In this document: positions 6,750 through 52,650 of the stretch, in pieces
How positions within the stretch are numbered: the first letter of the stretch is position 1
Layout: every line of letters starts with the position of its first letter
Assembly (NCBI GenBank): GCA_019746225.1
Contig: JAIESE010000013.1
Location: 106,063 to 170,062 of the forward strand
DNA from: Alphaproteobacteria bacterium
Lineage (GTDB): Bacteria; Pseudomonadota; Alphaproteobacteria; Paracaedibacterales; VGCI01
DNA: 64,000 nucleotides
Direction of reading: 5' to 3'
Program-made: the position numbers and the translations under genes
The notes under the pieces: model-generated
What the model saw: only the letters and a program-made list of their open reading frames with translations
The model's database searches: none
Told to the model about the DNA's origin: nothing

Positions 6750-9700
6750 TTAATTCATCTTACTCCCAATATTATAAACAACATCCAACATTTTCCAAAG
6801 ATTTCCTAAAAATTTTCGATCAAAACCATCAAATGTTTGTCCATGATTCCTGTGGGTGCCGCACGTTCCGTTTCGTTTCGTAATCCGATTGACCGCGCTT
6901 ATATAAAACCCAGATTTTGTTTTGAAAATCTGTATCTGACTCATAAAAAAAGGATCCGAAAACAGTCTTTCAAGATCGCTGTGATCTACACTTTTGTCTT
7001 TGATTTTGTCGAGAATACGGAAAGATGTATCCGTAAGCTTAGATTCACCTTCCTCTTCTTGATTATGAAGATCGATCCCCTTGGCCAATCTAACAAGCTG
7101 AGCTCCTTTCTTGCGAATAACCGGTAAGGGCTCGGACAACTCCTCCTGGATTTCTACGTCTGAAAACGTATCCGTCTCCTCTTCAGCTACTTCTGACAAA
7201 ACATGAATGGGCTCTCTTTTCCCCATGATAGCGTAAATCGTTCTAATGGTTCGTGATGCAACCAGTTTTGGAGATTCAAGTTTTCCGGGCGTGGTTATTG
7301 CTTGATCTCTTAAAGCGTCAATTTCTGTATCCGTCATGTCATCAACGTGATCCCCTTTATCCCCATCCCCTCCCGATTCATGGAGTTTTCTCAAAGCGAG
7401 GTCTTCGAGGTCTCTTGTCACTGAAGGATCTGTCTGTCGCGCTATTTCAAACCAATGTTCTGCTTTAATGAGATCATCAAATTCAAACAGATATACTTTG
7501 CATAAGGCCATCATCGCTGGAGCATATCCTTTATGAGCTGCCATCGTGAAATGAGAAACGGCCTGGTGTATAGACTTCCGATCTTTGAGTCCCATCAAAG
7601 TAACGCCCGCATTATAACAACACGTTATATCACCAAGGGCGGCACCCTTTTTGAAATAACTTAAAGCCTTATTTACATCAGGCTCCTGGCCATTAAACCC
7701 CTTTAACCAAACAATTCCTGCCATTCCCATTGAACGGACATCCTTTTGAGCTGCTCCCTCTTCAAAATACTTTAAGGCGGATCTTGTAGCTGAAAATTGT
7801 AAAAGACTTACACCAGCGTGGTGCATCGACAGAGAATCACCAAGAGCCGCAGATCTTTTGTAACAGTCTAATGCAGCAGCTTCATCCGGTTCCTGACCTT
7901 CAAACCCTTTTGAGAGCATGCACCCCTTATTACAAATCGCTTTGACATGGCTTGCTTGCGCCGCATTGGTGAAAAGTCGGAAGGCTTCTTTTAAATCGGG
8001 AGATTGCCCCTCAAATCCATCCCTCAATAAACATGCCGCATTGTAAGTGGCTTCCAAATGTCCATACTCAGCAGCAATTCTAAGATATTTCAAAGCAGCT
8101 TTTAAGTCTCCTTTCACTTTGTGAGATCCAAGTAATAAATCACCTGCATGGTAATGGGCGTCTCTATACACCTCAGAACCTGCTTCTGCATGCGCGGCCG
8201 CTCGTTTGAAATAATCCAAAGCTTGATCATCATCCTCAACAAAACCAAATAGGAGCATGGCATAGTGAAGCATGGCCTGAAGATGTCCATGATCCGCTGC
8301 TTGCCGAAGATAATTTAAGGCTTTTGCCCAAAGTTTTTGAATGTTTGGTTCTTTTAATTTCCGTCTAAATTCCCCATCCTCAAAATCATTGCCACTGATG
8401 GTTTTGAAAATCATCAAACCGGTATCAAACATCGCTTCTACATGACCATTTTCGGCTGCTTGTTCAAAATAAACCAAAGCTGCTTTATGATCTGGCTTGC
8501 GTCGTTTAAATCCCTTTAAGAGATTAAGGCCAGCATGGTACATCCCCTCTCTACTTCCCCTAGACGCCGCTTTTTTGAAATACTCTAGAGCCCTATTCCC
8601 ATCAGGTTCTAGACCCTCACAGCCATTGCTACAAATCACAGCGACGTTCATTATGGAATCGACATCCCCTCCTGCAGCAGCCTGTTCGAATAACCCCAAG
8701 GCTCTTATCTTATTTACTGCTTGACCATAAGTACCTTTCACAAGTGCAAATCCTGCATTAAAAGCGGAATCCACATGACCTTGAGCGGCAGCCATGAGAA
8801 TATAATGGAAAGCTTCCTGTTCATTAGGCTCTCGGCCTTTAAACCCAGTTTTCAGAGCATGTGCGGCTTGAAGCATCGCAGGAACATTTTTGAGCCGTGC
8901 TGCTTTGATATAACATTGCAGCGCTTCTTCTTCATTGGGCTCTAATCCCCCATAACCAGAGATATAGATGGCCGCCGCATTCATATAAGCTTCAGCATCC
9001 CCCCGTTCTCCCGCCATTAAGTAGTATTTCAAAGCCATTGCAAAATTGGGCTCTTGACCTTTAAACCCGGTATGAAAGAGACACCCTACATTAAATAGAG
9101 ATCCGACATCTCCATGACGAACTGCCTCGAGGAGTAAATCCAACGCTTGTTTGTCATCTGGTTCATGACCGTCAAAGCACTTGCGCGCAACGGTTGCCCC
9201 ATTGACCATCGCTTTGACATGCCCAGCTCTAGCTGCCGCTAAAAAGTATTCGAGAGCTTTTGCGTAATTTGGCTTTTGATCATCATATCCTTCTAAATGG
9301 ATGCATCCCACATTAAACATGCCACCAGCATCTCCAAGGGCGGCTGCACGTTCAAATAAACGTAAGGCTGCCCTTTTATCCGGTGGATGGTCTTTATAAC
9401 CGTCTCGAATAATACACCCTGCATTAAAAATTGAATGGACATCCTGGAATGCTGCTGCTCTATTAAATTGCTGTAAGGCTGCATGACGGTCTTGCTCGAT
9501 GCCAATGCCGCCATCCATCAGGAGACAACCCGCATGGTACATTGCCGATATAATTCCAAGATCTGCAGCATCCAAATAATGCCTCAACCCTTCTGCAGGA
9601 TTGGGTGGCAGACCACTACCACCGTCGGTGAGTAAGGTTGCCAGTTTAGATAGGGCTATTGGATCACGTTGTAACGCGCCTGCTCTATAATAGAGAAGCG

Positions 9701-10670
9701 CCTGTTTTCCATCTGGCTCTTGTCCTTCAAATCCCTTAAGACAGAAATCCCCCATGCGGCACATGGAAAATACATCGCCCAGTTCGGCCCCTCTCCTTGC
9801 GAATTCTAATGTTTTGGGCACATGTTGGCCCTGAGCTGAAGATTCGAGCATACTCCATAAACAACGCGTGGCTTTAAAGTGACCGAGTCGTGCTGCATGC
9901 TCAAAGTAAACAAGAGCCATTGCATTGTTCTGGCCCCTCACATAAGTACAAGCAATCTCAAAGAGGTCGTCTTTGTCTCCTTGCAACGTTGCAATTTCTT
10001 TCTCCAGATCCTTGTAGAGACCGATGCCATTTTTTAGGAGAAAACCATTTAAGTCGCTTAAGGCAACGCTGTACTTCTTGCCCCGCCATTCCTCATAAAA
10101 CGCCTGAATCTGCTGTTTGGGGGTAGGGGGTAGTTTCACAAGAAAAAAGGGATAATTCCGTTTAGAATAACCGGCCGCAACATATTTTTTGGCAGGCTCA
10201 TATCCTCGACTCGCGGCTAAGTAATGCCAAGATGTAAAAGGATTTGTGTCGGTCTTTTCACGCTCTCCCCTTTCAAAATAAGCCCAGGGTAACTGGAGTT
10301 CAACTCCAAAATCTATGAGCTGAGCCAGAATGCCATTTCTATCCTGGTTCGCCGTAATATCAAGCTTTGAAAAGGGTTTGGTCAAGAATCCATAGAGTCT
10401 TCCAACCGATTCAGGAGCGCGGTTTTGAATGGCATCATATTGATAAGCACTTAAAAATAATTCAGAGGATATTTCATCATTAAAAAGAGCACTATTGATC
10501 ACCTTGTGATTCAACAACATCGGAGAGAATGGATATTTTCTTTCAAAAAACTTCTGAGCTTTTGTGAGAACGGAAGCATCAATAGGTGTGGATTCATTCT
10601 CAGCACCTAAAATGGATAAACCAAATAGTGTAAATAACATTACCGCAAGAGAAAAAGTACGTAGCATCAA
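6750..10670 (-). CDS. Giant Sel1-repeat (SLR/TPR-like) protein, EnhC-like, with a non-repeat C-terminal region
   Basis: Signal peptide. More than 20 consecutive ~36-aa units of the type A..YY..AA..G...A...LG.....G. The last ~280 aa are acidic and unique, without repeats. Confidence 0.9.
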   Translation of the reverse strand: MMLRTFSLAVMLFTLFGLSILGAENESTPIDASVLTKAQKFFERKYPFSPMLLNHKVINSALFNDEISSELFLSAYQYDAIQNRAPESVGRLYGFLTKPFSKLDITANQDRNGILAQLIDFGVELQLPWAYFERGEREKTDTNPFTSWHYLAASRGYEPAKKYVAAGYSKRNYPFFLVKLPPTPKQQIQAFYEEWRGKKYSVALSDLNGFLLKNGIGLYKDLEKEIATLQGDKDDLFEIACTYVRGQNNAMALVYFEHAARLGHFKATRCLWSMLESSAQGQHVPKTLEFARRGAELGDVFSMCRMGDFCLKGFEGQEPDGKQALLYYRAGALQRDPIALSKLATLLTDGGSGLPPNPAEGLRHYLDAADLGIISAMYHAGCLLMDGGIGIEQDRHAALQQFNRAAAFQDVHSIFNAGCIIRDGYKDHPPDKRAALRLFERAAALGDAGGMFNVGCIHLEGYDDQKPNYAKALEYFLAAARAGHVKAMVNGATVARKCFDGHEPDDKQALDLLLEAVRHGDVGSLFNVGCLFHTGFKGQEPNFAMALKYYLMAGERGDAEAYMNAAAIYISGYGGLEPNEEEALQCYIKAARLKNVPAMLQAAHALKTGFKGREPNEQEAFHYILMAAAQGHVDSAFNAGFALVKGTYGQAVNKIRALGLFEQAAAGGDVDSIMNVAVICSNGCEGLEPDGNRALEYFKKAASRGSREGMYHAGLNLLKGFKRRKPDHKAALVYFEQAAENGHVEAMFDTGLMIFKTISGNDFEDGEFRRKLKEPNIQKLWAKALNYLRQAADHGHLQAMLHYAMLLFGFVEDDDQALDYFKRAAAHAEAGSEVYRDAHYHAGDLLLGSHKVKGDLKAALKYLRIAAEYGHLEATYNAACLLRDGFEGQSPDLKEAFRLFTNAAQASHVKAICNKGCMLSKGFEGQEPDEAAALDCYKRSAALGDSLSMHHAGVSLLQFSATRSALKYFEEGAAQKDVRSMGMAGIVWLKGFNGQEPDVNKALSYFKKGAALGDITCCYNAGVTLMGLKDRKSIHQAVSHFTMAAHKGYAPAMMALCKVYLFEFDDLIKAEHWFEIARQTDPSVTRDLEDLALRKLHESGGDGDKGDHVDDMTDTEIDALRDQAITTPGKLESPKLVASRTIRTIYAIMGKREPIHVLSEVAEEETDTFSDVEIQEELSEPLPVIRKKGAQLVRLAKGIDLHNQEEEGESKLTDTSFRILDKIKDKSVDHSDLERLFSDPFFMSQIQIFKTKSGFYISAVNRITKRNGTCGTHRNHGQTFDGFDRKFLGNLWKMLDVVYNIGSKMN

Positions 10671-11552: not shown

Positions 11553-11631
11553 TTTCCTTATTCATATCCAACACCTGATTTAATGAGATGCTTATTGCAT
11601 ATCATAGGACTACGGAAATATAAAGATGGCC
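11553..11631. repeat. Copy 1 of a ~79-bp direct repeat; this is the 5' UTR and upstream region of the oxygenase gene
   Basis: The core CCTGATTTAATGAGATGCTTATTGCATATCATAGGACTACGGAAATATAAAGATGGCC (11574-11631) recurs at 13430-13487 with one mismatch. Weaker homology extends from TTTCCTTATT. Confidence 0.9.
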
Positions 11632-11847
11632 AATAAACTCTATAATAGTCCATGTCAGTTTACCCATTTATAAGGATTTTGCAATAAGCATACCTCAAAG
11701 CCAATTGAGGTCATCACCACTCCGGGACTAAAATAGCACCCTACGCACTTCACGAATTTTCTTAGTGGGTGAGAGAACACCTCTTAGGGTATGGATGAAA
11801 TATTTTTTATTGCCAAAATCATGCTCTAAACTATACAAACAATGAAA

Positions 11848-11870
11848 CTAGCGTATTTTTACGGTATTGC
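11848..11870 (+). promoter_or_regulatory. Conserved box CTAGCGTATTTTTACGGTATTGC overlapping a putative -35 (site 1)
   Basis: Identical to 49918-49940 and near-identical to 45865-45887. TTGCAT is followed after 16 nt by TATTAT. It lies ~170 nt upstream of the 12042 ATG. Confidence 0.5.
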
Positions 11871-12041
11871 ATAATATAAATATCTTGTTATTATAAAAAA
11901 CTTCAAACGTTTTCAGTTGTTTTTGCTATTAGAAAAGCTCATTTAGCAAGCATGCTAAATATTATATATATTGATGCGCCACAATGCAAAACCAATTTAT
12001 AATTTAATTTTTATATTTAAAAAATAAGGCAAATATTTAAA

Positions 12042-13109
12042 ATGAAGTTTAAAAATTTAATAATTAACATAATTATACCATATATTTCTCTTTTTATTAT
12101 GATATTAATATCCCGTTTTATGATGGGCAATACGTCAATAGGGGTATTTATTGGATTTATTGGATGGTTAATCTTCTTGGCAGGGTATTGGTGGATCAGT
12201 TGTGTGTCAGCGACCTGGAGAAATGAGAAAGGACATTTTTTACATTATTGTACCAGAAAGGATGAATTAACATCGATCAAAATTTTTGAAAATGAGGACC
12301 CAAAGAAAGCAAAAATTATTGAAAGCAGCTATGCCCTCGTCGCCGCAATTAGAGTCAACAAGGAACAAACTCCGAAGCTAAAAGATAGCAAGTTTGGCGG
12401 CGTACCATATTGGCCTAAAGGCAAAGAATACCCAGTAACATCAGGGGGAAAAAGATTAGGCATGCTTGCCCAAATTAACTGCAAAGATGTGCCAAAAGAA
12501 TTAGGCTGGCCAAAGCGGGGGATTGTTCAGTTCTTCCTGAATGATGATGAGGATCATGATTCCTTTCATCCCTTAAATAAAAATCGCTCCCGCGTCATAT
12601 ACCATGAAGACACCAAGTTAGATTCAATAGAATTGAGCGTGGAGCAAGAGCCCATTTACTGGGGAAAAAACTACCCATTCAATTTTTCTCAACCCATGAA
12701 AATTGACTTCATGCTTGGTCATATGTTGCCCGTTCATCCTTCGGCAGATGTACTTTTAAACCCAATGCTAGCAGATCTTCTTGGGGCCACTGACTTTAGA
12801 TATGACACAAAAAATCCAGACCTTACATCCTCCTACTGGATCTATTGGGATCTCAAATGGCATGAATCATTTCCTAATTTCCCTAAACACTATATTGGGG
12901 GTTTTCCCGCAACAGACTATATTGCTGGGATGAGATTTGAGAATTACCCTCGTTATTCTAATCTTCTGCTTCAGATAAGTTCGGAGGGAAAAAAGGATGG
13001 GATCGGCTGGGTTGACGGAGGCCAGGGACAGTTTTTTACTTCTTCTCAAAAGCTAAAAGATAAAGATTTTACAGACGTCTGCTTTGCGGATTATTTTTCG
13101 CATTTCTAA
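12042..13109 (+). CDS. DUF1963 (YwqG-like) domain protein with two N-terminal TM helices
   Basis: KFGGVPYWPKGKEYP...MLAQINC...GIVQFF matches the blocks I recall for DUF1963. AT-rich gene preceded by a ~400-nt very AT-rich leader. Confidence 0.65.
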   Translation: MKFKNLIINIIIPYISLFIMILISRFMMGNTSIGVFIGFIGWLIFLAGYWWISCVSATWRNEKGHFLHYCTRKDELTSIKIFENEDPKKAKIIESSYALVAAIRVNKEQTPKLKDSKFGGVPYWPKGKEYPVTSGGKRLGMLAQINCKDVPKELGWPKRGIVQFFLNDDEDHDSFHPLNKNRSRVIYHEDTKLDSIELSVEQEPIYWGKNYPFNFSQPMKIDFMLGHMLPVHPSADVLLNPMLADLLGATDFRYDTKNPDLTSSYWIYWDLKWHESFPNFPKHYIGGFPATDYIAGMRFENYPRYSNLLLQISSEGKKDGIGWVDGGQGQFFTSSQKLKDKDFTDVCFADYFSHF

Positions 13110-13154
13110 TCAATCTTAAATCTTGATACTCATGATGAGCCCGGTACAAATTCA

Positions 13155-13405
13155 CCCGTACAAATTGAGTATTAACGCAATCCACGGCTTGGGTGAGCTG
13201 AATAGATTTGGGATCTTCCATGGGCAACATGGGCAACATGAAAAACAAATCAAGCTGAACTTGCTGATCCCGTGGCAACAGATCAAACACCATGACCCCT
13301 GCTTTATGGTACGCAAAGCCGAGCTTAAATATACTCTCAAATGCTTTCGTTGTGGCTTTAATCAGACTCAAATCATCATCAACGGGACAAGGCAAAATAA
13401 GGGTT
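13155..13405 (-). pseudogene. Internal fragment of umuC (duplicate of 13942-14184)
   Basis: The translation PCPVDDDLSLIKATTKAFESIFKLGFAYHKAGVM...DPKSIQLTQAVD.VNTQF is near-identical to UmuC residues in the full copy. There is a 9-nt internal duplication (MLPMLPM). It lacks the 5' ~900 nt and the last ~115 nt of the gene. Confidence 0.9.
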
Positions 13406-13408
13406 ACA

Positions 13409-13487
13409 TTTCCTTATTTAAATTCACTGCCTGATTTAATGAGATGCTTATTGCATATCATAGGACCACGGAAATATAAAGATGGCC
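13409..13487. repeat. Copy 2 of the ~79-bp direct repeat, fused to the umuC fragment
   Basis: See 11553-11631. It starts 3 nt after the point where umuC homology ends. Confidence 0.9.
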
Positions 13488-13826: not shown

Positions 13827-15095
13827 CTACCGCGCATACGCCTTGGGGAGATCCTGCCAGCAGGTGGTGTAAGCGGGTGAGACATTGCGTTTCTGGTCCC
13901 GCCATCGCAAGCGCTTTCCGCAGGCGGCCGAAAAAAGTGTCCCCCGTCCAAATTGAGTATTCACACGATCCACGGCTTGGGTGAGTTGAATAGATTTTGG
14001 GTCTTCCATGGGCAGCATGGAGAAAAGATCAAGCTGAATTTGCTGATCCCGGGGCAATAGATCAAGCGCCATGACCCCTGCTTTATGGTACGCAAAACCG
14101 GGCTTGAAGATGCTCTCAAACGCCTTCGTTGTGGCTTTAATCAGGCTCAAATCATCATCAACGGGACAGGGCAAAATAAGGGTTGCGTGATTTCGATATT
14201 GGGGCTGATTTTTGCGAAAAAAATTCGTGCGAATCTCCACCAAAACACTGCGCGTCTTTAAGCCATTGATGCGCAACTTTTGGGCCAATCGGGTGGCATA
14301 GGTCGCAACCGCCGCTCGAACATCTTCTTCCTTGACCATGGGCACGGCAAAGCTACGGGATACTTGGATTGATTTTTTAGGATCCTGAATGTCCTCGACC
14401 TCAAGGCAAGACAGCCCATTCAGTTCATGAATGAGACGCTCCCCCACAACCGTAAAGGTGCGCCGCATCCAACGAGGATCGATTTCCTTCAACTGCAGCC
14501 CTGTATAAATACCATAAGCCTGCAGGCGCTCCGTGATGCGACGTCCAATGCCCCAAATGTCCTCAATCTTGATGGCCTTTAGCGCCCCATTCACACGCGC
14601 GTCCGTATCCAAAACACACACGGACCGATACGCCCCCACCCGCTTAGCAAAGTAGTTAGCCACCTTCGCCAAGGTCTTTGTCTTAGCAATGCCGATGGAC
14701 GTGGGAAGTCCCAAAGATTGATAGATCTGATTCCTCAAATGATGCGCCCTTTCCTCTATGCTCACCACACCTGAAAAGTCGATAAATGCTTCATCAATGG
14801 AATAGACTTCGAGGCGCGGAACATGAGATTCAATCAGCGTCATCATGCGCGCGGACATATCCCCATAAAGGGAAAAGTTTGACGAAAAAACGGCAACGTG
14901 ATTTTTAAGGAGAATATCTTTGATTTTGAAATATGGCGCGCCCATGGGGATACCGAGTGCCTTGACCTCTGCGGATCGGGCAATGATGCAGCCATCGTTA
15001 TTCGACAGAACCGCAACGGGACGCCCCACAAGATCGGGGCGAAAGACCCGCTCGCACGAAGCAAAAAAATTATTGCCATCGAGAAGACCAATCAT
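13827..15095 (-). CDS. umuC: Y-family DNA polymerase V catalytic subunit UmuC
   Basis: MIGLLDGNNFFASCERVFRPDL...SIDEAF motifs and a C-terminal SPAYTTCWQDLP. Overlaps the upstream umuD-like gene by 4 nt. Confidence 0.9.
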   Translation of the reverse strand: MIGLLDGNNFFASCERVFRPDLVGRPVAVLSNNDGCIIARSAEVKALGIPMGAPYFKIKDILLKNHVAVFSSNFSLYGDMSARMMTLIESHVPRLEVYSIDEAFIDFSGVVSIEERAHHLRNQIYQSLGLPTSIGIAKTKTLAKVANYFAKRVGAYRSVCVLDTDARVNGALKAIKIEDIWGIGRRITERLQAYGIYTGLQLKEIDPRWMRRTFTVVGERLIHELNGLSCLEVEDIQDPKKSIQVSRSFAVPMVKEEDVRAAVATYATRLAQKLRINGLKTRSVLVEIRTNFFRKNQPQYRNHATLILPCPVDDDLSLIKATTKAFESIFKPGFAYHKAGVMALDLLPRDQQIQLDLFSMLPMEDPKSIQLTQAVDRVNTQFGRGTLFSAACGKRLRWRDQKRNVSPAYTTCWQDLPKAYAR

Positions 15096-45693: not shown

Positions 45694-45864
45694 ACTATAG
45701 CCGTATCGTTAATCATTATCGTTTGAAGCATCTCCTTCGTGAAATTTAAGCGATTCTGTTGAAAAAAGCCAGAAACTTGTTGGGGAGGCATCTCCATATA
45801 GGTATTTTTATTCGATGGAATATAACGTCTGTTTTTTTAAATCGTCCCTCTCTCAGAAGTGTCG

Positions 45865-45887
45865 CTAGCGTATTTATACCGTATTGC
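45865..45887 (+). promoter_or_regulatory. Conserved box CTAGCGTATTTATACCGTATTGC overlapping a putative -35 (site 3)
   Basis: 20 of 23 nt match sites 1 and 2. TTGCTG is followed after 16 nt by TATATA. It lies ~55 nt upstream of the ATG at 45941. Confidence 0.45.
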
Positions 45888-45940
45888 TGTTATTAAAAAC
45901 GCGAATATATACTAAATCTCAATTTTTAGGAGATGCCACC

Positions 45941-46771
45941 ATGAAACTTCAATCGTTGCTATTCGCTTTTGCCGCAAATACCCTCATGCCTTATCCGCTA
46001 ATGGCGAGTGATAGCAGAGTTCCAGATCTACCAATAGAAATGGATGTTCCCAAGTGTGCAGGAGTCGCTTCCCAAGGGGAAGTATTGAATCTGGAGGAGA
46101 AAAAGACTCTATTATTGAGCGCGTGTGGGGTTGAAAAAGACCGTCAAGCACTTATCAACGCCTTTAATGAACCTTCTTCTGAGGATGCATTAAGGCAAGT
46201 ATTAGCCTGGATGACGGAAGATAGGCTTAAAAGGAGCACAAAGACTTCAAATTGGTCTTCGTTTATGCTTGGTGTTCTCAAAATATTGGAAGAGTTTGAA
46301 GATGATAAACGACATGCCTTTGTTTTACGGCTAGAACAAAACGGCGTTATGACTAGGTGTAGTAATATTTTTGATATCCATCATTATCTCCAGATCTTTA
46401 GGAATTCTACTACTGAGAAAATGAATCAAGCTATGAGATGGGTTAAAGAAACGGGAATTTGGGAGGTTTGCAAAAGCGGTGAATTCCATTTACCTAACTT
46501 GGTGGAATTAGTAAAAGACTATGACCAGGAGCAACTCGGTTGTGTAACATCATTTCTCAAAACAACAGGGATTTTGAGCCAATATTGCCATCAAAATAAT
46601 CTGTATGAACCCAGAAGGCGTCTCGCAGAGATGCTTAATCTTCTTAAAACGTGCCGCACAGAACAACTAGAGTTTCTTGCGCAATGGATGAAAGCAACGA
46701 CTTACATCTATAAGCACTTGGATGAGGGAAACGGGCGCTTGGGAGAAACTCAGCTCCTGGTACTGCTTTAG
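45941..46771 (+). CDS. Secreted repeat protein, N-terminal part (probably split from 46722..48410 by a frameshift)
   Basis: AGGAG RBS and the ATG at 45941 give the signal peptide MKLQSLLFAFAANTL; the track TTG at 45884 lies inside the box. Recurrent W(M/V)(K/R)E(T/S)G-type modules. Confidence 0.55.
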   Translation: MKLQSLLFAFAANTLMPYPLMASDSRVPDLPIEMDVPKCAGVASQGEVLNLEEKKTLLLSACGVEKDRQALINAFNEPSSEDALRQVLAWMTEDRLKRSTKTSNWSSFMLGVLKILEEFEDDKRHAFVLRLEQNGVMTRCSNIFDIHHYLQIFRNSTTEKMNQAMRWVKETGIWEVCKSGEFHLPNLVELVKDYDQEQLGCVTSFLKTTGILSQYCHQNNLYEPRRRLAEMLNLLKTCRTEQLEFLAQWMKATTYIYKHLDEGNGRLGETQLLVLL

Positions 46772-48410
46772 TAATTTTATTCTTTTAGGTAAGAGGTATG
46801 ATGAATCATTATTTATCAAAGCCTTATCTGAAAATTATGTCACTAGTGCTGGCCTTACTCAGGAAATCTTTTTTGACTTTTTTATGAGACATTTTCCGGA
46901 TGGTGACTCGGTAGATTCTTTGCGCAAATTAAAAGCTGCTGCTACCTGGATTAATGAATCATATTCAGAAAAATTTTACTCTAGTGAGGTAAAAGAGCTA
47001 TTTTCTATTCTCAAAAAATACGATTTTGAATATTTAAAGCTAATTACATCCGTCCTAATGGAAATGCGTTGGTTGGATACAATGCAGCCTTGTAATTTAA
47101 CACTCGCATTAAGAAGATTAAAAAACTGTAACAAGGAAACCTTCACAACAATTATTTCATGGATGAAAGAATCTGGGGTTTTGGCAACCTGCAATGATGT
47201 GGAAAGTTTTCTTAACGTAATCAGTTCCATCCAAACATGTGGGCCAGAGGACCTCAGAAATCTTATAGAACAAGGGGTTGTTCCAGAAAACGTTATTGAA
47301 GTTTTGATCCGCGTGTTGGGTGAAACCCATCCCGTCACCCAAAATCTCATAGAATTAGCCATTGGGTATGACAATCAACGAAACCCCAATAGCCCATTTG
47401 CAGTTTACTGTGAAATGAGGAAAAAGAGTAGTGATGAGGTTGAACACCGCCAACTTCAATTAACGACAGGTCTATCTTTGCGGTTAAATAGTATCAAGGA
47501 ACCTCGACCAGCAATCAGTATTCATATGCCTTCCAATGTTTGGAAAAGACTTTTTGAACAGTTTGAGAAAATAGATCCATCTACTTACACTGAACTTTTG
47601 GGTGATATTTCCCTAGAAACTATCTTGAAACTTAAAAATCACCACGACATTGTAAGGCTTCTGGACCCCAAAGATAGTCTAAAAGTTAATAAAAAGATCT
47701 CTTCGCACAGTCATATGTTGAGAGAAGTTCTTAAAAAAGCGCAAGAGGATTTTAGACTAGACCACGAGAATATTGGCAGTTTTGTACAGCTCTTGGTCAA
47801 CATCACAACGTGTCAAACAGGAAAGCTCAACGGGATTACTCACAGTTATATCTATATGAACCAGGGTCGCGCGCTCGATGAAAGTGTATTGGGGGCAGAA
47901 GGGTTTAAGCAAGAAATTGTCAGTTTCTTTAAGGAAGAATTACGACGCTTTAGAGAAGCAACCTTAGCGGCAATTGTGAGGAATATTACGAGGAGGCCAC
48001 AGGCTGATCCTCATGATCTTTACTATGTACGTGGCATTATTGGTCATGAGACTGGCCTCTTTTTTGAGAATGAGACCCCAACGGTTGACATTTATGCTTG
48101 GGGTGTCTCTGGGAAATTGAGGGGAAAAACCAAACAACAATTGTTGGATTTGTTCTATCAATATTACAAGGTGGAAGATGTGGTGGATCGCGTTCACTCG
48201 ATGTTAAACAATGGCTCAATTAGTATCTCAAATGAGTACTTAAGGGATGAGGCTATGGACGAAACATTGAGTGCGTGGGATCCTGAACTCGTGGTGCTGG
48301 ATGGTCAACAAAAGCCTTTGGGTCTTACCCCAAAAGCAGCACAGCGCCTTCTGGAAATTCTCGGTTTTGTCGTGAACGAAAATAAACCAGAGGAAACCAT
48401 GAAAACTTAA
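46722..48410 (+). CDS. Repeat protein, C-terminal part with a unique ~330-aa C-terminal domain
   Basis: The same module (TWMRETGAWEKL, SWMKESGVLATC) continues here. This frame is open from 46692 and overlaps the upstream ORF by 80 nt. Confidence 0.55.
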   Translation: MRETGAWEKLSSWYCFSNFILLGKRYDESLFIKALSENYVTSAGLTQEIFFDFFMRHFPDGDSVDSLRKLKAAATWINESYSEKFYSSEVKELFSILKKYDFEYLKLITSVLMEMRWLDTMQPCNLTLALRRLKNCNKETFTTIISWMKESGVLATCNDVESFLNVISSIQTCGPEDLRNLIEQGVVPENVIEVLIRVLGETHPVTQNLIELAIGYDNQRNPNSPFAVYCEMRKKSSDEVEHRQLQLTTGLSLRLNSIKEPRPAISIHMPSNVWKRLFEQFEKIDPSTYTELLGDISLETILKLKNHHDIVRLLDPKDSLKVNKKISSHSHMLREVLKKAQEDFRLDHENIGSFVQLLVNITTCQTGKLNGITHSYIYMNQGRALDESVLGAEGFKQEIVSFFKEELRRFREATLAAIVRNITRRPQADPHDLYYVRGIIGHETGLFFENETPTVDIYAWGVSGKLRGKTKQQLLDLFYQYYKVEDVVDRVHSMLNNGSISISNEYLRDEAMDETLSAWDPELVVLDGQQKPLGLTPKAAQRLLEILGFVVNENKPEETMKT

Positions 48411-48443
48411 TGAGGCAGCTTCAGCAAGGCAGAAGATAAAGAC

Positions 48444-48623
48444 TCAATCATCCAAAGAGCTTTTCTCCCCTGCTTCTTCCGCATCTTCCTCTTCCGCTGT
48501 CTCTTGAGTGGGGATTTTGTAATCTTCCCTAAACCATTTGATGAGGTCAATGTTCTTACAGGTCTTTGAACAGAACGGTGCATAGGTTTTATCAGCGTGC
48601 TTTTGGCAAATAGGACACGGCAT
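48444..48623 (-). CDS. yacG: DNA gyrase inhibitor YacG (zinc finger); 59 aa, below the ORF-track cutoff
   Basis: My own translation is MPCPICQKHADKTYAPFCSKTCKNIDLIKWFREDYKIPTQE... It matches CPxC...PFCSxxCxxIDLxxW...IP of YacG. TAATG overlap with the upstream kinase gene. Confidence 0.75.
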   Translation of the reverse strand: MPCPICQKHADKTYAPFCSKTCKNIDLIKWFREDYKIPTQETAEEEDAEEAGEKSSLDD

Positions 48624-49654
48624 TAGAATTCGCCTCCTTTGATGAATTGAGATTTGAGAACGGCATGGGATAAAGGCTCCTGATCATGGTCTTTGAACCA
48701 GGCTTTAAGGGCGGCTAAATCGGGGTGTTCCAAACAGCTATGAAGCATTTTCCACATGCGGGGGAGATGATTGAGGTAATGGGTTTTGCCGTCCCGCACC
48801 GCAAGGCGGGTAAAGATGCCGATGTTTTTGGCATGGCGTCCAGCGGCCAATAGGCACCCTGATGATCTCAAAGCTTCTTCATCCAAATGAGGAAAGGCCC
48901 CTAAATATCGTTGCCAGCAATGCTCGATGAGCGCAGGCTCTAAATCGAGGCGTTCATCCTCCACAAGGGAGATAAGATCATAAGCAACGGGTCCCCATCC
49001 CGCATCTTGAAAATCCAGAAGTCCACAGGCGGCAACATCAGCGCGATCTTTCAAGAGCATCAAATTATCCACATGATAGTCCCGCAATGCTAAGGTATGG
49101 GGACTCTTAACTGCTTTTTCAAAAACAGGTCTCCAGAGATCGAGATAGTCTACTTTCTCGGAATTGGACAAGCTCTTATTGCAATTCGCAGGCACATACC
49201 AGTCAACAAATTGGGTGACTTCTCGCAGCATATGATCAACATCATAAGCGGGGATAAATTCTGGGCAATCCGTTGCCCGCTGATGAAGAGCGATGAGGGT
49301 ATCGACCGCCAACTCATAGAGGGGATAGGGATCATGGCCTGCTTGCAACAGTTTTGTATAAGTCGTCTCACCAAAATCCTCTATGGCCAGTAACCCTTGG
49401 GACAAATCTTCGGCGAGGATGGCAGGCGCTGAAAATCCAAGATCCTTCAAATGGGATGCCACGCGCACAAATTGGGTGGGATTTTCAGGAGGTGGTGCAT
49501 CCATCAAGAGTCCCCCCTCATAGCGGAAATATTGTCGCTTCGAGGCATCACAAGGCAACGCCGTCAGGGATTGATGGCCTAAAAAGAGATGCCGTTGCGC
49601 TACCCGGTCGAGGGGATCAACTTGTGGTTTCTGGTAAGGTTTTAAGCGACTCAT
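48623..49654 (-). CDS. Aminoglycoside-phosphotransferase-fold kinase (AmgK-like)
   Basis: LRDYHVDNLMLL (catalytic loop) and LLDFQDAG. The position after tsaE is common in alphaproteobacteria. Confidence 0.72.
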   Translation of the reverse strand: MSRLKPYQKPQVDPLDRVAQRHLFLGHQSLTALPCDASKRQYFRYEGGLLMDAPPPENPTQFVRVASHLKDLGFSAPAILAEDLSQGLLAIEDFGETTYTKLLQAGHDPYPLYELAVDTLIALHQRATDCPEFIPAYDVDHMLREVTQFVDWYVPANCNKSLSNSEKVDYLDLWRPVFEKAVKSPHTLALRDYHVDNLMLLKDRADVAACGLLDFQDAGWGPVAYDLISLVEDERLDLEPALIEHCWQRYLGAFPHLDEEALRSSGCLLAAGRHAKNIGIFTRLAVRDGKTHYLNHLPRMWKMLHSCLEHPDLAALKAWFKDHDQEPLSHAVLKSQFIKGGEF

Positions 49655-49825
49655 GGGGTCCTACTAAGGTTATGGTAATTTCTCGCGTTGTTTCATTGAC
49701 GATTTTTAATGTGATATCAATTCGTCGGCGGGGCAATAAATCAGCCAACCGCTCCGGCCATTCTATCAAGCATATGGCCTCATGAAAAGCATCTTCAAGG
49801 CCTAACTCAAAGTTTCCTGAGGGTA
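49608..49825 (-). pseudogene. Duplicated 3' end of tsaE (copy of 51475-51692)
   Basis: The core 49613-49803 differs from 51480-51670 at about 6 positions by eye. The translation FELGLEDAFHEAICLIEWPERLADLLPRRRIDIT.KIVNETTREITIT.VGPHESLKTLPETTS equals the TsaE C-terminus. Confidence 0.92.
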
Positions 49826-49917
49826 AAGAAAAATTTGAAGATCTGTAAGATAGAGACCTTTTTAGCAAATTAAACTGATATTCCTGAAATAACTCACCCT
49901 CTTTGAAACTTTAGGAA

Positions 49918-49940
49918 CTAGCGTATTTTTACGGTATTGC
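49918..49940 (+). promoter_or_regulatory. Conserved box CTAGCGTATTTTTACGGTATTGC overlapping a putative -35 (site 2)
   Basis: Identical to site 1, with 26 nt identical when flanks are included. TTGCAA is followed after 18 nt by TACAAT. It lies ~80 nt upstream of the 50019 ATG. Confidence 0.5.
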
Positions 49941-50018
49941 AAAAATATATTTTGTGTCTCTACAATAATGCTCATTTTTTAATAAGTACTTTATGTTTAT
50001 TAAAATTTATTATTTAGC

Positions 50019-51434
50019 ATGGAGAAAAAAATACATAAATATTTAAAACAAACAACTTTTGCTTTATTAGTGACAGGACTCTGTTCTCAAATAGGGTTTA
50101 CATCTGAAGAGGGTAAGGAAAGTAAGAAAAGAAAGTCTTCTCATTCTTCTATCGCTCATACTGAACGCTTACAGGGAGATCAAACTTCAGCAGTAATATC
50201 TCCTATGCTTAAGTCCCAGAAGACTGAGGATGAACCTCAAATAGATCTTCGTAATCTTGGTAAGCTTTTTGAGTTGCCTTATCACGTTCGTATGCAACTC
50301 TACGGACTTTTGGATAGCACAACTCTTAAGTTCTTAAATATTCAAAACAGAGCATTACGATGTGAGATCTTTCAACAAAGAGGAGGTAGAATAGACTTAA
50401 AAATAAACACTCCTGTAGAAGCTTTAAGGGGGATGCTTAGGAAAGTCGGAAAAATAGACCTAGTGGCTAACTGTCTGAGATATTTGAATGTTCAAGGCTT
50501 GAGTGTTCTTGCAAAGCAAGATGGAACAGTTGATAAAACTCAATTCTTGGATGACGAAATCGTGGACCTCCTTGCCAGGTGCAAAAATTTGAAATCTTTC
50601 GCATTGTCTAGCTGTATAATCTGTCCCGGTGGTAAGAATTGGACTGAAGAAAGTACGGAAAATTGGGGAAATAACCAAAACCCTTTAAGACCTGTGGCTA
50701 GAAACGCCCTTACTCGCCTTTGCGAGGTTATATCAACAGAAACTTTATGCGAAGAGTTGATTTACGATTCAACTCCTTATTCTGAAAATTGGGAGTGGGA
50801 CCACGAAGATTGCCATGTTAATGGTCCTTTCGATTCCGATTCTGCCCTAAAAATTGTGCGTAAATCTTTTAATTTTTCAAAATTGAAAAAATTAAAAATT
50901 GGTTTAAATTTTGATACCACCTCCCTTTCTAAAATAGTTAAAGAAAAAATAGAATATATGACTTCATTGGAATATTTAAATTTACATTTTTGTGGGGATT
51001 TTCAAGAACTATTTATTGAGCTCCTGGGAAAAGTCAAAAATAATAGCAAACTAAAAGTATTTAAATTAGAATCTGAAGAATACTCATACGGCTTTAATCT
51101 TAGAATGCTCACTGAAATTTTTAATTCTGATCTATATATACAAAGAATATATCTTCATAATTTATGGTTTGACTGTGATCATCAAAATATTTTTAGGGAA
51201 TTATGCCAAGCTGTAAACCAATCTAGAAGTTTAGTTAAACTGAAATTTTTAGCACTTAAATTGCCTTATGGACAAGGTTTTTATAATGGGCTCAACCTCT
51301 TATTCAGGATAAAAGTTTTTTGCCATAATTGTCGTGAACCAATAGAAAACAAATGTTTTGATCCGAAGAATTTTACAAGGAAAAGCTTAATAATTGAGAC
51401 TTTTTGCGAAGAGTGCAAGGCAAACGGTGAGTAA
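50019..51434 (+). CDS. Eukaryote-like F-box-like / leucine-rich-repeat protein with a signal peptide
   Basis: LFELPYHVRMQLYGLLDSTTLKFLNIQNRALRCEI fits the F-box spacing (LPxx...L..L......L). It is followed by RNI-type LRRs (LKSFALSSC, LKKLKIGLNF, LEYLNLHFCG, LKVFKLES, LVKLKFLALKL). C-terminal CxxC...CxxC. About one-third GC by eye. Confidence 0.6.
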   Translation: MEKKIHKYLKQTTFALLVTGLCSQIGFTSEEGKESKKRKSSHSSIAHTERLQGDQTSAVISPMLKSQKTEDEPQIDLRNLGKLFELPYHVRMQLYGLLDSTTLKFLNIQNRALRCEIFQQRGGRIDLKINTPVEALRGMLRKVGKIDLVANCLRYLNVQGLSVLAKQDGTVDKTQFLDDEIVDLLARCKNLKSFALSSCIICPGGKNWTEESTENWGNNQNPLRPVARNALTRLCEVISTETLCEELIYDSTPYSENWEWDHEDCHVNGPFDSDSALKIVRKSFNFSKLKKLKIGLNFDTTSLSKIVKEKIEYMTSLEYLNLHFCGDFQELFIELLGKVKNNSKLKVFKLESEEYSYGFNLRMLTEIFNSDLYIQRIYLHNLWFDCDHQNIFRELCQAVNQSRSLVKLKFLALKLPYGQGFYNGLNLLFRIKVFCHNCREPIENKCFDPKNFTRKSLIIETFCEECKANGE

Positions 51435-51484
51435 TGGGTCCAGTTTTTAAATTCGTCGTCTGGCCATCCCTTCAGTTGAGGAGA

Positions 51485-51946
51485 TCAACTTGTGGTTTCT
51501 GGTAAGGTTTTAAGCGACTCATGGGGTCCTACTATGGTTATGGTAATTTCTCGTGTTGTTTCATTGACGATTTTAAAAGTGATATCAATCCGTCGGCGGG
51601 GTAATAAATCAGCCAACCGCTCCGGCCATTCTATCAAGCATATGGCCTCATGAAAAGCATCTTCAAGGCCCAGTTCAAACACTTCCTCGGGGTCTTTGAG
51701 ACGATAAAGATCGCAATGCCACACTTCGCCTTGAGGGGTATCATAAGCTTGTACAAGCGTGAAAGTCGGACTGGGGACATCTATGTCTTGACCAACCATA
51801 GTTTGAATGAGAATGCGCGCAAATGTCGTTTTCCCGACGCCCAAATCCCCCCACAAGGCAATCACGTCTCCTGGCCGCAAAGCTTCTGCCAGAGGCTGCA
51901 CCAAGCTACTGAGGTCTTGTTGAGTGAGGGTGTAGGTGAATGTCAT
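51485..51946 (-). CDS. tsaE: tRNA t6A biosynthesis ATPase TsaE
   Basis: WGDLGVGKTTFAR (P-loop), SPTFTLV and HCDLYRL. Confidence 0.9.
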   Translation of the reverse strand: MTFTYTLTQQDLSSLVQPLAEALRPGDVIALWGDLGVGKTTFARILIQTMVGQDIDVPSPTFTLVQAYDTPQGEVWHCDLYRLKDPEEVFELGLEDAFHEAICLIEWPERLADLLPRRRIDITFKIVNETTREITITIVGPHESLKTLPETTS

Positions 51947-51961
51947 ATATCTTACAACTTA

Positions 51962-52285
51962 CTATGCTGCAACAACATGTGTTACTGCGGGACGAAATTT
52001 TGAATGGTTTCTTTTGATGACAATATCAACATCCCAATCGAGTAAATTGAGGAGATGGATTAAGCGATCAATAGAAAACTTGTGAAGACGTCCTCTAAAC
52101 AAATCAGAAACATCAGGTTGCTTTAGACCCAAGACACGGGCTGCCTGCGTCTGAGTCAGTTTTCTCGAAATGATGGTTTTTTGGATCTTTCGAGCCAATT
52201 CAGCCTTAGCCAGAACTTCCTCAGGCTCTTTAATCTTTAGGTCAGCAAATATATTATCGCTCGCCTTAATAATTTTTTCCGTCAT
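51962..52285 (-). CDS. XRE-family HTH antitoxin (HigA-like)
   Basis: LTQTQAARVLGLKQPDVSDLFRGRLHKFSIDRLI HTH. 4-nt overlap with the upstream toxin gene. Confidence 0.8.
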   Translation of the reverse strand: MTEKIIKASDNIFADLKIKEPEEVLAKAELARKIQKTIISRKLTQTQAARVLGLKQPDVSDLFRGRLHKFSIDRLIHLLNLLDWDVDIVIKRNHSKFRPAVTHVVAA

Positions 52286-52650
52286 TTCTTTCTCCTTTCA
52301 TAATCTTCTTGAGCTCTTTTAAACCGCGCCTCAATCAGATCAATTTCTTTCTTTGGTGTTGCAATTCCATGCTTAGACTTTTTTTGAAAGGCATGGAGAA
52401 CATATATAGCTTCTTTAAGTGTGACTGTATAAACAACTCTAAAGGTATTAGTGTTATGATCTTCAACAATCTCTAAAACTCCTGATCCCTTAAATCCTTT
52501 TAGAGGTTTTACTGAAGAATGTTTTTCTCCCATTTGTGCTAGGTAGAGAGCATAACCAGCTTCTTCTCGAACCTCCTCAGGAAAGTCTAGTAGATCAATT
52601 TTTGTGCTACCAACCCAATACAATGGTTTTATCACACCTAACTCCCTCAA
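52282..52650 (-). CDS. RelE/HigB-superfamily toxin (Gp49/DUF891-like)
   Basis: LKGFKGSGVLEIVEDHNTNTFRVVYTV...IYVLHAFQKKS matches the Gp49-like HigB family. Toxin-first gene order. Confidence 0.8.
   Translation of the reverse strand: MRELGVIKPLYWVGSTKIDLLDFPEEVREEAGYALYLAQMGEKHSSVKPLKGFKGSGVLEIVEDHNTNTFRVVYTVTLKEAIYVLHAFQKKSKHGIATPKKEIDLIEARFKRAQEDYERRKK

Follow-up and report, generated by a model that had tools for sequence, protein, structure and literature searches.

Several systems are known in which DNA enters a gene or a gene junction and leaves the interrupted genes functional. The prophage e14, which integrates in icd of Escherichia coli, brings in a near-identical 3' end that keeps the gene functional while the displaced end persists as icdC, the differences between the two being mostly synonymous (PMC13626634; Hill et al., 1989, as cited there). 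In Campbell-type integration, used with non-replicating plasmids and seen for circular DNA that recombines with a homologous chromosomal segment, same-orientation copies of that segment come to flank the insert, the empty site has one copy, and no recombinase of the element is needed; if that segment reaches from the end of one gene into its neighbor's start, both remain intact, and the product can loop out. In transformation, donor DNA pairing with two chromatids produces merodiploids with a duplication, and selection for an essential gene recovers an intact copy beside the insertion (Johnston et al., 2013; PMC3784515). Transposons also directly duplicate their target on either side of the insert; these duplications are typically 2–15 bp, are identical when formed, and come with inverted repeats and a transposase. 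Here, we analyzed a 64,000-nucleotide (nt) stretch of an alphaproteobacterial genome (GenBank assembly GCA_019746225.1, contig JAIESE010000013.1, positions 106,063 to 170,062; hereafter, the window), in which a small insert with one orphan open reading frame (ORF) lies between tsaE and an AmgK-like kinase gene, bracketed by a direct duplication of the tsaE-kinase junction, and we suggest that this insert probably arrived by homologous recombination with DNA of a related strain.

Repeat finding and pairwise alignment revealed a direct repeat of 205 nt (49607-49811 and 51475-51679, offset 1868), in which 194 of the 205 positions are identical (11 mismatches, ~95%). The features at this site, with proteins given in amino acids (aa), are as follows.

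49607..49811: left repeat copy (H-left), defined by repeat finding and alignment
51475..51679: right repeat copy (H-right), defined in the same way
49812..51474: inserted DNA, 1663 nt, AT-rich, in no relative
48623..49654, minus strand: intact AmgK-like kinase of the APH family, 343 aa (Pfam APH, E = 2.4e-21), with its first 16 codons within H-left
51485..51946, minus strand: intact tsaE, 153 aa (Pfam TsaE, E = 3.8e-38; TIGR00150, 112.9 bits, above the cut-off of 60.1)
49617..49811, minus strand: dead tsaE tail, codons ~89-153 plus stop, translated as …FELGLEDAFHEAICLIEWP…ETTS*
51472..51522, minus strand: dead kinase stub of 16 codons, translated as MSRLKPYQKPQVDLLN*
50019..51434, plus strand: orphan ORF of 471 aa (NCBI MBX9804642.1, K2Y18_02685)

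The repeat is the longest of only four direct-repeat families of at least 35 nt in the window, indicating that it is not a chance match. Its edges are abrupt (49811/49812 and 51474/51475), since beyond 49811 the in-register match drops to 5 of 14 bases, which is chance level, and the frame there encodes SGN in place of the EE[AV] found in all relatives. The original prediction had drawn the copies as 49608-49825 and 51475-51692, with identity decaying at the inner end. Its core of ~191 nt with ~6 mismatches corresponds to 49615-49802; the extension to 49825 and 51692, however, is ruled out by the chance-level match past 49811, and the supposed decay is an absence of homology. The longest identical runs between the copies (68 and 52 nt) are both internal, and at the 5' edge only 5 nt are identical (49807-49811), adjoining three mismatches.

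The arrangement was reproduced in contigs of at least five independent metagenomes of the Joint Genome Institute (JGI) (L001, L002, L005, L010, L011), which match the window at 100% identity and cover both copies together with unique flanking sequence, and three further contigs (L003, L004, L006) join the insert, H-left, and the kinase gene in the same way on that side. The ends of the latter three fall inside the 471-aa ORF (~50117, 50858, and 51140) and not at the repeat, a pattern that low coverage or heterogeneity of the cargo gene may explain.

The empty site was present in eight relatives (L013-L015, L016-L018, L097-L098), each with one junction copy, in agreement with the original prediction that the gene had been inserted into an overlap of tsaE and the kinase gene. 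In L013 (kinase 88% identical at the aa level), L014, and L015 (70%), the two genes overlap by 38 nt with nothing between them, and the tsaE-kinase junction is likewise contiguous in L016-L018 and L097-L098. Gene order in the relatives is ABC ATPase, tsaE, kinase, yacG, MFS, and ABC-F; compared with them, the lineage-specific additions in the window are a HigB/HigA pair, the 471-aa ORF, and two orphan ORFs between yacG and MFS. None of the relatives compared carried the junction duplication without the insert, the finding that the original prediction had named as speaking against it. L013 was the sole near outgroup for polarizing changes in the repeat: no variants of 90-99% identity occurred in the protein clusters of TsaE or the kinase, and a metagenome DNA scan with a conserved 23-mer returned only three loci, all distant.

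Both genes at the junction are present in full length (51485-51946 and 48623-49654), as had been predicted. H-right contributes the 3' end of intact tsaE along with the kinase stub, and H-left consists of the dead tsaE tail and the first 16 codons of the intact kinase gene. The tail is in frame over its 65 codons, matches positions 83-128 of the Pfam TsaE profile (E = 1.5e-7), and also provides the kinase gene with its 5' leader and upstream sequence. Assignment of the intact upstream gene to the TsaE family is straightforward, as both profiles listed above recognize it; tsaE is essential in most bacteria. The downstream gene was originally called amgK, a name that holds in the sense of an AmgK-like protein with an APH domain but not as an equivalog, because its match to the NCBIfam AmgK model NF045698 (E = 5.5e-62, 210 bits) lies below the cut-off of 500. 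Orthologues of the kinase in the relatives are 59-88% identical, and some have been named N-acetylmuramate 1-kinase by JGI.

A consensus scan of the repeat detected two promoter-like sites, one in each copy.

49760..49788, minus strand: sigma-70-like promoter with an extended -10, TTTTCA-17-TGaTAGAAT, ~100 nt upstream of the kinase ATG
51628..51656, minus strand: second, identical promoter-like site

Across the eight relatives, this site coincides with a peak of third-codon-position conservation in tsaE (0.80-0.84 vs. ~0.5 elsewhere), and we suggest that it drives the kinase gene from within tsaE, with the right-hand copy presumably pointing through the stub, antisense, into the 3' end of the 471-aa ORF. 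If the kinase promoter lies inside tsaE, the two units would share ~172 nt (49617-49788) and not merely the 38-nt overlap, such that only insertions duplicating at least that stretch would keep both genes working. The repeat starts 23 nt ahead of the -35 and continues for 10 nt beyond the stop codon of tsaE. It would thus just cover the shared stretch and leave both units complete, which may account for its length whatever the mechanism of insertion.

The differences between the two copies carry most of the information about their origin. In the tsaE-coding part, nine differences comprise seven synonymous and two conservative changes (F/L and I/L), corresponding to a synonymous divergence (dS) of 0.155, a nonsynonymous divergence (dN) of 0.014, and a dN/dS of ~0.09; a 7:2 synonymous bias has P = 0.014 if one copy had been dead since a duplication in situ and P = 0.001 under full neutrality. 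With L013 as sister, seven unique changes fall in the functional copy and one in the dead copy (Tajima p = 0.034), an asymmetry that has P of 3e-4 to 3e-3 if the dead copy is expected to be the faster-changing one. Relative to L013, the dead tail has only one or two changes of its own and none at the first or second codon position. The synonymous bias and the undecayed tail suggest that the copies are alleles from two functional genomes, recently joined, and the simplest reading of the sequence is that neither is a decaying duplicate made in situ; since the sites are few and the signal is mosaic, we take this as support and not as proof. The dS between the copies is about one third of the divergence between the window and L013 (proportion of synonymous differences, pS, 0.38-0.49), which fits a closely related donor. 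We considered whether an old duplication had been kept alike by selection on the kinase leader, but third codon positions in this region vary freely among the relatives, so constraint on the leader cannot account for the missing decay, the tail being unchanged at positions 1 and 2. Import of a whole tsaE allele was also rejected, given that divergence from L013 upstream of the repeat does not exceed that of the kinase gene.

The insert differs from its flanks in composition (GC 0.26-0.41 vs. 0.45-0.52) and carries a single long ORF (50019-51434) together with one promoter box. As originally predicted, it has no recombinase gene: Pfam and NCBIfam scans found no transposase, integrase, excisionase, or phage gene in the insert, leaving the 471-aa orphan as its sole notable ORF, in contrast to what defines an integrase island. 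Its ends lack terminal inverted repeats, the window contains no tRNA, and no Rfam family scored above threshold. We therefore ruled out transposon, integron, phage, and tRNA-island readings on the basis of these absences. The target duplication, which had been called far longer than those made by transposases, is indeed 205 nt, a length that to our knowledge far exceeds any transposase target-site duplication, so that none of the marks of a transposable element (short duplication, inverted repeats, transposase) is present.

Upstream of the 471-aa ORF lies a 22-nt box that recurs in the window at two other insertions.

49919..49940, plus strand: box TAGCGTATTTTTACGGTATTGC, overlapping the -35 of the cargo promoter, upstream of the 471-aa ORF
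49937..49966, plus strand: promoter-like site for the 471-aa ORF, TTGCAA-18-TACAAT, a consensus match only
11849-11870: box copy upstream of a DUF1963 ORF (12042-13109, plus strand)
45866-45887: box copy upstream of a 295-aa ORF (45884-46771, plus strand)
11553..13487: DUF1963 cassette region, consisting of repeat U (11553-11631), the box, the ORF, a dead umuC fragment (13152-13405), and repeat U' (13409-13487)
13827-15095, minus strand: intact umuC
45779-48435: third cassette, in the yacG-MFS spacer, with orphan ORFs of 295 aa and 562 aa that have no Pfam matches

In the box, TAGCGTATTTWTACSGTATTGC, two TAnnGTATT half-sites are spaced 11 nt apart and overlie the -35 of a TACAAT promoter. The window has three copies of it, where none would be expected by chance, two of them identical over 26 nt, and each copy precedes a lineage-specific AT-rich ORF on the plus strand; it was not found in the loci fetched for the relatives. 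This layout resembles that of winged-helix response-regulator sites (PhoB/PmrA-like), and the box may be a response-regulator site defining a small regulon. In Legionella, PmrA activates ~40 effector genes through a shared response-regulator box (PMC6989116). The resemblance lies in three lineage-specific AT-rich genes with a common 22-nt box whose two direct half-sites sit one helical turn apart over the -35; unlike the PmrA regulon, the present set is a putative one, defined by sequence architecture, and amounts to three sites in 64 kb. The duplicated TAnnGTATT motif also differs from what we take to be the PmrA box.

The DUF1963 cassette carries a second allelic signature. It is flanked by U and U', a 79-nt repeat that is 91% identical, and contains a dead C-terminal umuC fragment (13152-13405) that is 89% identical to the resident umuC at 13940-14184. 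The 18 synonymous and 7 nonsynonymous differences between fragment and resident gene (pS 0.335; proportion of nonsynonymous differences, pN, 0.038; P ~1e-4 against decay in situ) indicate that the fragment is an allele from another lineage. The layout, namely gene A, U, cassette, umuC', U', spacer, and umuC, matches what a circle of U, cassette, and umuC' would be expected to leave after a crossover in U. For the umuC locus, differing synteny among the relatives prevented the definition of a clean empty site. The third cassette is a clean intergenic insertion into a spacer that measures ~90-120 nt in the relatives.

Considering these results together, we favor, as probable though by a modest measure, that the cassette in the tsaE-kinase junction entered by homologous recombination with the DNA of a related strain and not by transposition or site-specific integration. 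The incoming 1.66-kb cassette, made up of the regulator box, a promoter, and one AT-rich orphan gene, would have borne its own 205-nt junction allele, comprising the 3' end of tsaE and the opening 16 codons of the kinase gene. If this DNA was circular, one crossover (Campbell-type insertion-duplication) would then set the cassette between two junction copies, with the tsaE-side copy completing tsaE and the kinase-side copy providing the start codon, leader, and putative promoter of the kinase gene; the same product would also result from a topologically equivalent event, in which donor DNA bridges sister chromosomes that exchange unequally. For this model we infer a donor strain, a circular intermediate, dependence on RecA, and an event that first created the repeat-cassette-repeat unit. 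The original prediction, Campbell-type integration of a small circle carrying the target junction, finds independent support in the allelic signature (seven synonymous vs. two nonsynonymous differences; seven of eight unique changes in the functional copy) and with the second allelic cassette, while the circle itself stays conjectural; its designation of the repeats as attL and attR should not be taken to mean site-specific attachment (att) sites, as there is no integrase and no clear identical core.

Two same-orientation copies around the insert, against one copy in the eight relatives, are what insertion-duplication produces. Unlike the use of Campbell integration with plasmids, this would be a natural event in an uncultured symbiont-like genome, involving a presumed circle, a single orphan cargo with its own putatively regulated promoter, and the allele of a related strain. 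The locus resembles e14 and phage 21 in icd in that the target gene is functional, the displaced 3' end lies dead on the far side, and the differences are mostly synonymous; e14, however, is a prophage of 15 kb that encodes a site-specific recombinase and has a defined att core, in contrast to a 1.66-kb insert with no recombinase, and the segment duplicated here also takes in the start and putative promoter of the downstream gene. The duplications in transformation merodiploids are 100-900 kb long and bordered by insertion-sequence (IS) repeats, whereas here 205 nt are duplicated and the border is the junction itself.

Some observations weigh against recombination with a related strain. Among the contigs retrieved, all of which show the integrated form, none had a circle junction, a donor allele, or an empty-site version of the locus from this strain, the nearest relative being 88% identical at the aa level. 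Only 9-11 sites differ between the copies, making the statistics suggestive rather than decisive. The signal is also mosaic, in that the dead copy and L013 share TTA/ACA-TTA in the 5' part whereas both copies share the window-specific CCAGAA/AGTTGA in the 3' part, which would require a mosaic donor or later gene conversion. The model leaves the first origin of a circle with the exact junction and cassette unexplained, and the third box-bearing insertion (45779-48435) has clean junctions, with no flanking duplication found.

The same product topology could also have been reached in situ in two steps, a 205-nt tandem duplication of the junction and insertion of foreign DNA at the joint between the copies, followed by allelic replacement of tsaE. 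Homologous allelic exchange is common, and a 52-nt identical stretch followed by two changes within the 10-nt unconstrained stub would fit a conversion tract that ended inside the repeat. We nevertheless regard this history as rather unlikely: it requires three events, it places the insertion exactly at the copy-copy joint despite ~160 nt of dead DNA on offer, and no relative compared has the duplication alone. In addition, the part of tsaE that precedes the repeat shows no excess divergence from L013 over the kinase gene (pS 0.49 vs. 0.38), and two changes in 10 nt of the stub vs. one or two in 157 nt of the dead tail are inconsistent with neutral decay. Site-specific integration of the kind seen for e14 or phage 21 at icd, with a core near 49803-49811 and an integrase-bearing element that brought a substitute tsaE 3' end and was later reduced to one gene or mobilized in trans, would leave a footprint of the same form as icd and icdC around e14 (PMC13626634), that is, a gene completed by the element and a displaced C-terminal pseudogene. 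Intact tsaE and its dead tail correspond to such replaced and displaced ends, of which either could be the native copy, and the functional copy is the more divergent relative to L013. Since the insert is just 1.66 kb and has no integrase, excisionase, or phage gene, and since the 5' boundary offers only 5 nt (49807-49811) beside three mismatches in place of a clear identical core, we find such an integration quite unlikely; moreover, an icd-type substitute end would have no need of the 16 kinase codons in the element copy.

More improbable still is an assembly artefact, in which an uninterrupted chromosome and a free 1.87-kb circle, or two strains, were threaded through the shared identical stretches of 52-68 nt. 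Such threading would yield the identical sequence and would be expected to produce allelic copies, so some chance of it persists, and one contig (L012, from the Logan collection) ends inside both repeat copies. At least five JGI assemblies, however, agree at 100% identity with unique flanks on both sides, making an artefact unlikely; L003, L004, and L006 break at differing points in the ORF and not at the repeat, and no empty-site or circle contig of the same strain was among those retrieved. Metagenome assemblers usually work with large k-mers, and the identical stretches (at most 68 nt) are shorter than these. Hardly credible, in our view, is a transposon-like or break-repair insertion with staggered cuts ~205 nt apart whose fill-in made a long target-site duplication. 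The insert is flanked by a direct duplication of its target and mismatches are somewhat enriched near both inner ends, but fill-in gives identical copies, and 11 later differences conflict with the synonymous bias and the undecayed dead tail; there is also no transposase, there are no terminal inverted repeats, and 205 nt is far above the target-site duplications known for transposases.

Beyond this locus, we tentatively propose, with the reservation that it may well prove wrong, that the units of box, promoter, and gene are recombinase-free mobile cassettes, which would move between related strains attached to a fragment of a neighboring core gene, integrate by host homologous recombination as insertion-duplications, and be able to loop out through their flanking repeats, which would restore the transferable circle; allelic core-gene fragments accompany two of the three cassettes in the window. 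The tsaE-kinase locus itself is probably a naturally occurring instance of a recombination outcome that is already known, and the chance that it represents a general cassette route without a recombinase in these symbionts is modest. Were that true and general, it would constitute a distinct route for the exchange of effector-like genes in obligate intracellular bacteria that lack classical mobile elements, with the 22-nt box as the mark of a shared regulon or, with lower probability, as a signal for recombination. The sequence suggests ordinary homologous recombination as the way in which effector-like orphan genes pass from strain to strain in Holosporales-like symbionts. Such footprints reveal gene gain by a host-restricted bacterium where an insertion should be lethal, namely at overlapping genes, by duplication of the exact stretch that they share. 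The synonymous-biased divergence of the repeat copies and of the umuC fragment offers a simple, reusable test that distinguishes recombination with a related donor from duplication in situ. Other outcomes of the analysis are the putative promoter within the tsaE coding sequence and a box that may define a regulon of lineage-specific genes.

In the cargo protein of 471 aa, a hydrophobic segment lies at the N terminus, with a weak F-box-like motif at residues 82-122 and leucine-rich repeat (LRR)-like repeats at ~264-411. No homologues were found among 5.8 billion proteins, among 1.84 billion representatives searched with phmmer, or in the PDB, and consequently no alignment or profile could be built. 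It had originally been labeled an F-box/LRR gene. That resemblance is plausible though weak, on the strength of matches to Pfam F-box_4 (E = 0.02, 15.2 bits, below the cut-off of 32; residues 82-122) and LRR_8 (E = 0.3, 11.3 bits, below the cut-off of 27), both of which fall short of family membership, and of four LxxLxLxx[NC] motifs where 1.1 are expected (P = 0.024). A single-sequence AlphaFold (AF2) model was unusable, with a predicted local distance difference test (pLDDT) score of 37, and displayed an alternation of strand and helix with a period of ~28 residues. In one contig of the same locus (L102, JGI 3300056799), a 22-nt deletion corresponding to window positions 50451-50472 frameshifts the ORF into pieces of 146 aa and 316 aa, which could be an assembly error or an allele disrupted in part of the population.

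A GTDB scan of species-level genomes by kinase identity gave an alphaproteobacterial bin as the best match (69%), followed by an uncultured Candidatus Finniella (66%) and Paracaedibacter (49%). From the identities to Candidatus Finniella and Paracaedibacter, the source organism looks like a protist symbiont of the Holosporales type. Upstream of tsaE lies one of the lineage-specific additions.

51962-52650: HigB-like (Gp49) and HigA-like (HTH_37) toxin-antitoxin pair, between the ABC ATPase gene and tsaE

This pair is AT-rich and is missing in the relatives, in which the corresponding gap is 13-40 nt; a flanking duplication was looked for at the HigBA insertion and not found. Elsewhere in the window (6750-10670) is a 1306-aa protein made up mostly of Sel1 repeats (Pfam Sel1, E = 1.2e-64), and eukaryote-like repeat proteins of the Sel1 type are typical of intracellular symbionts.

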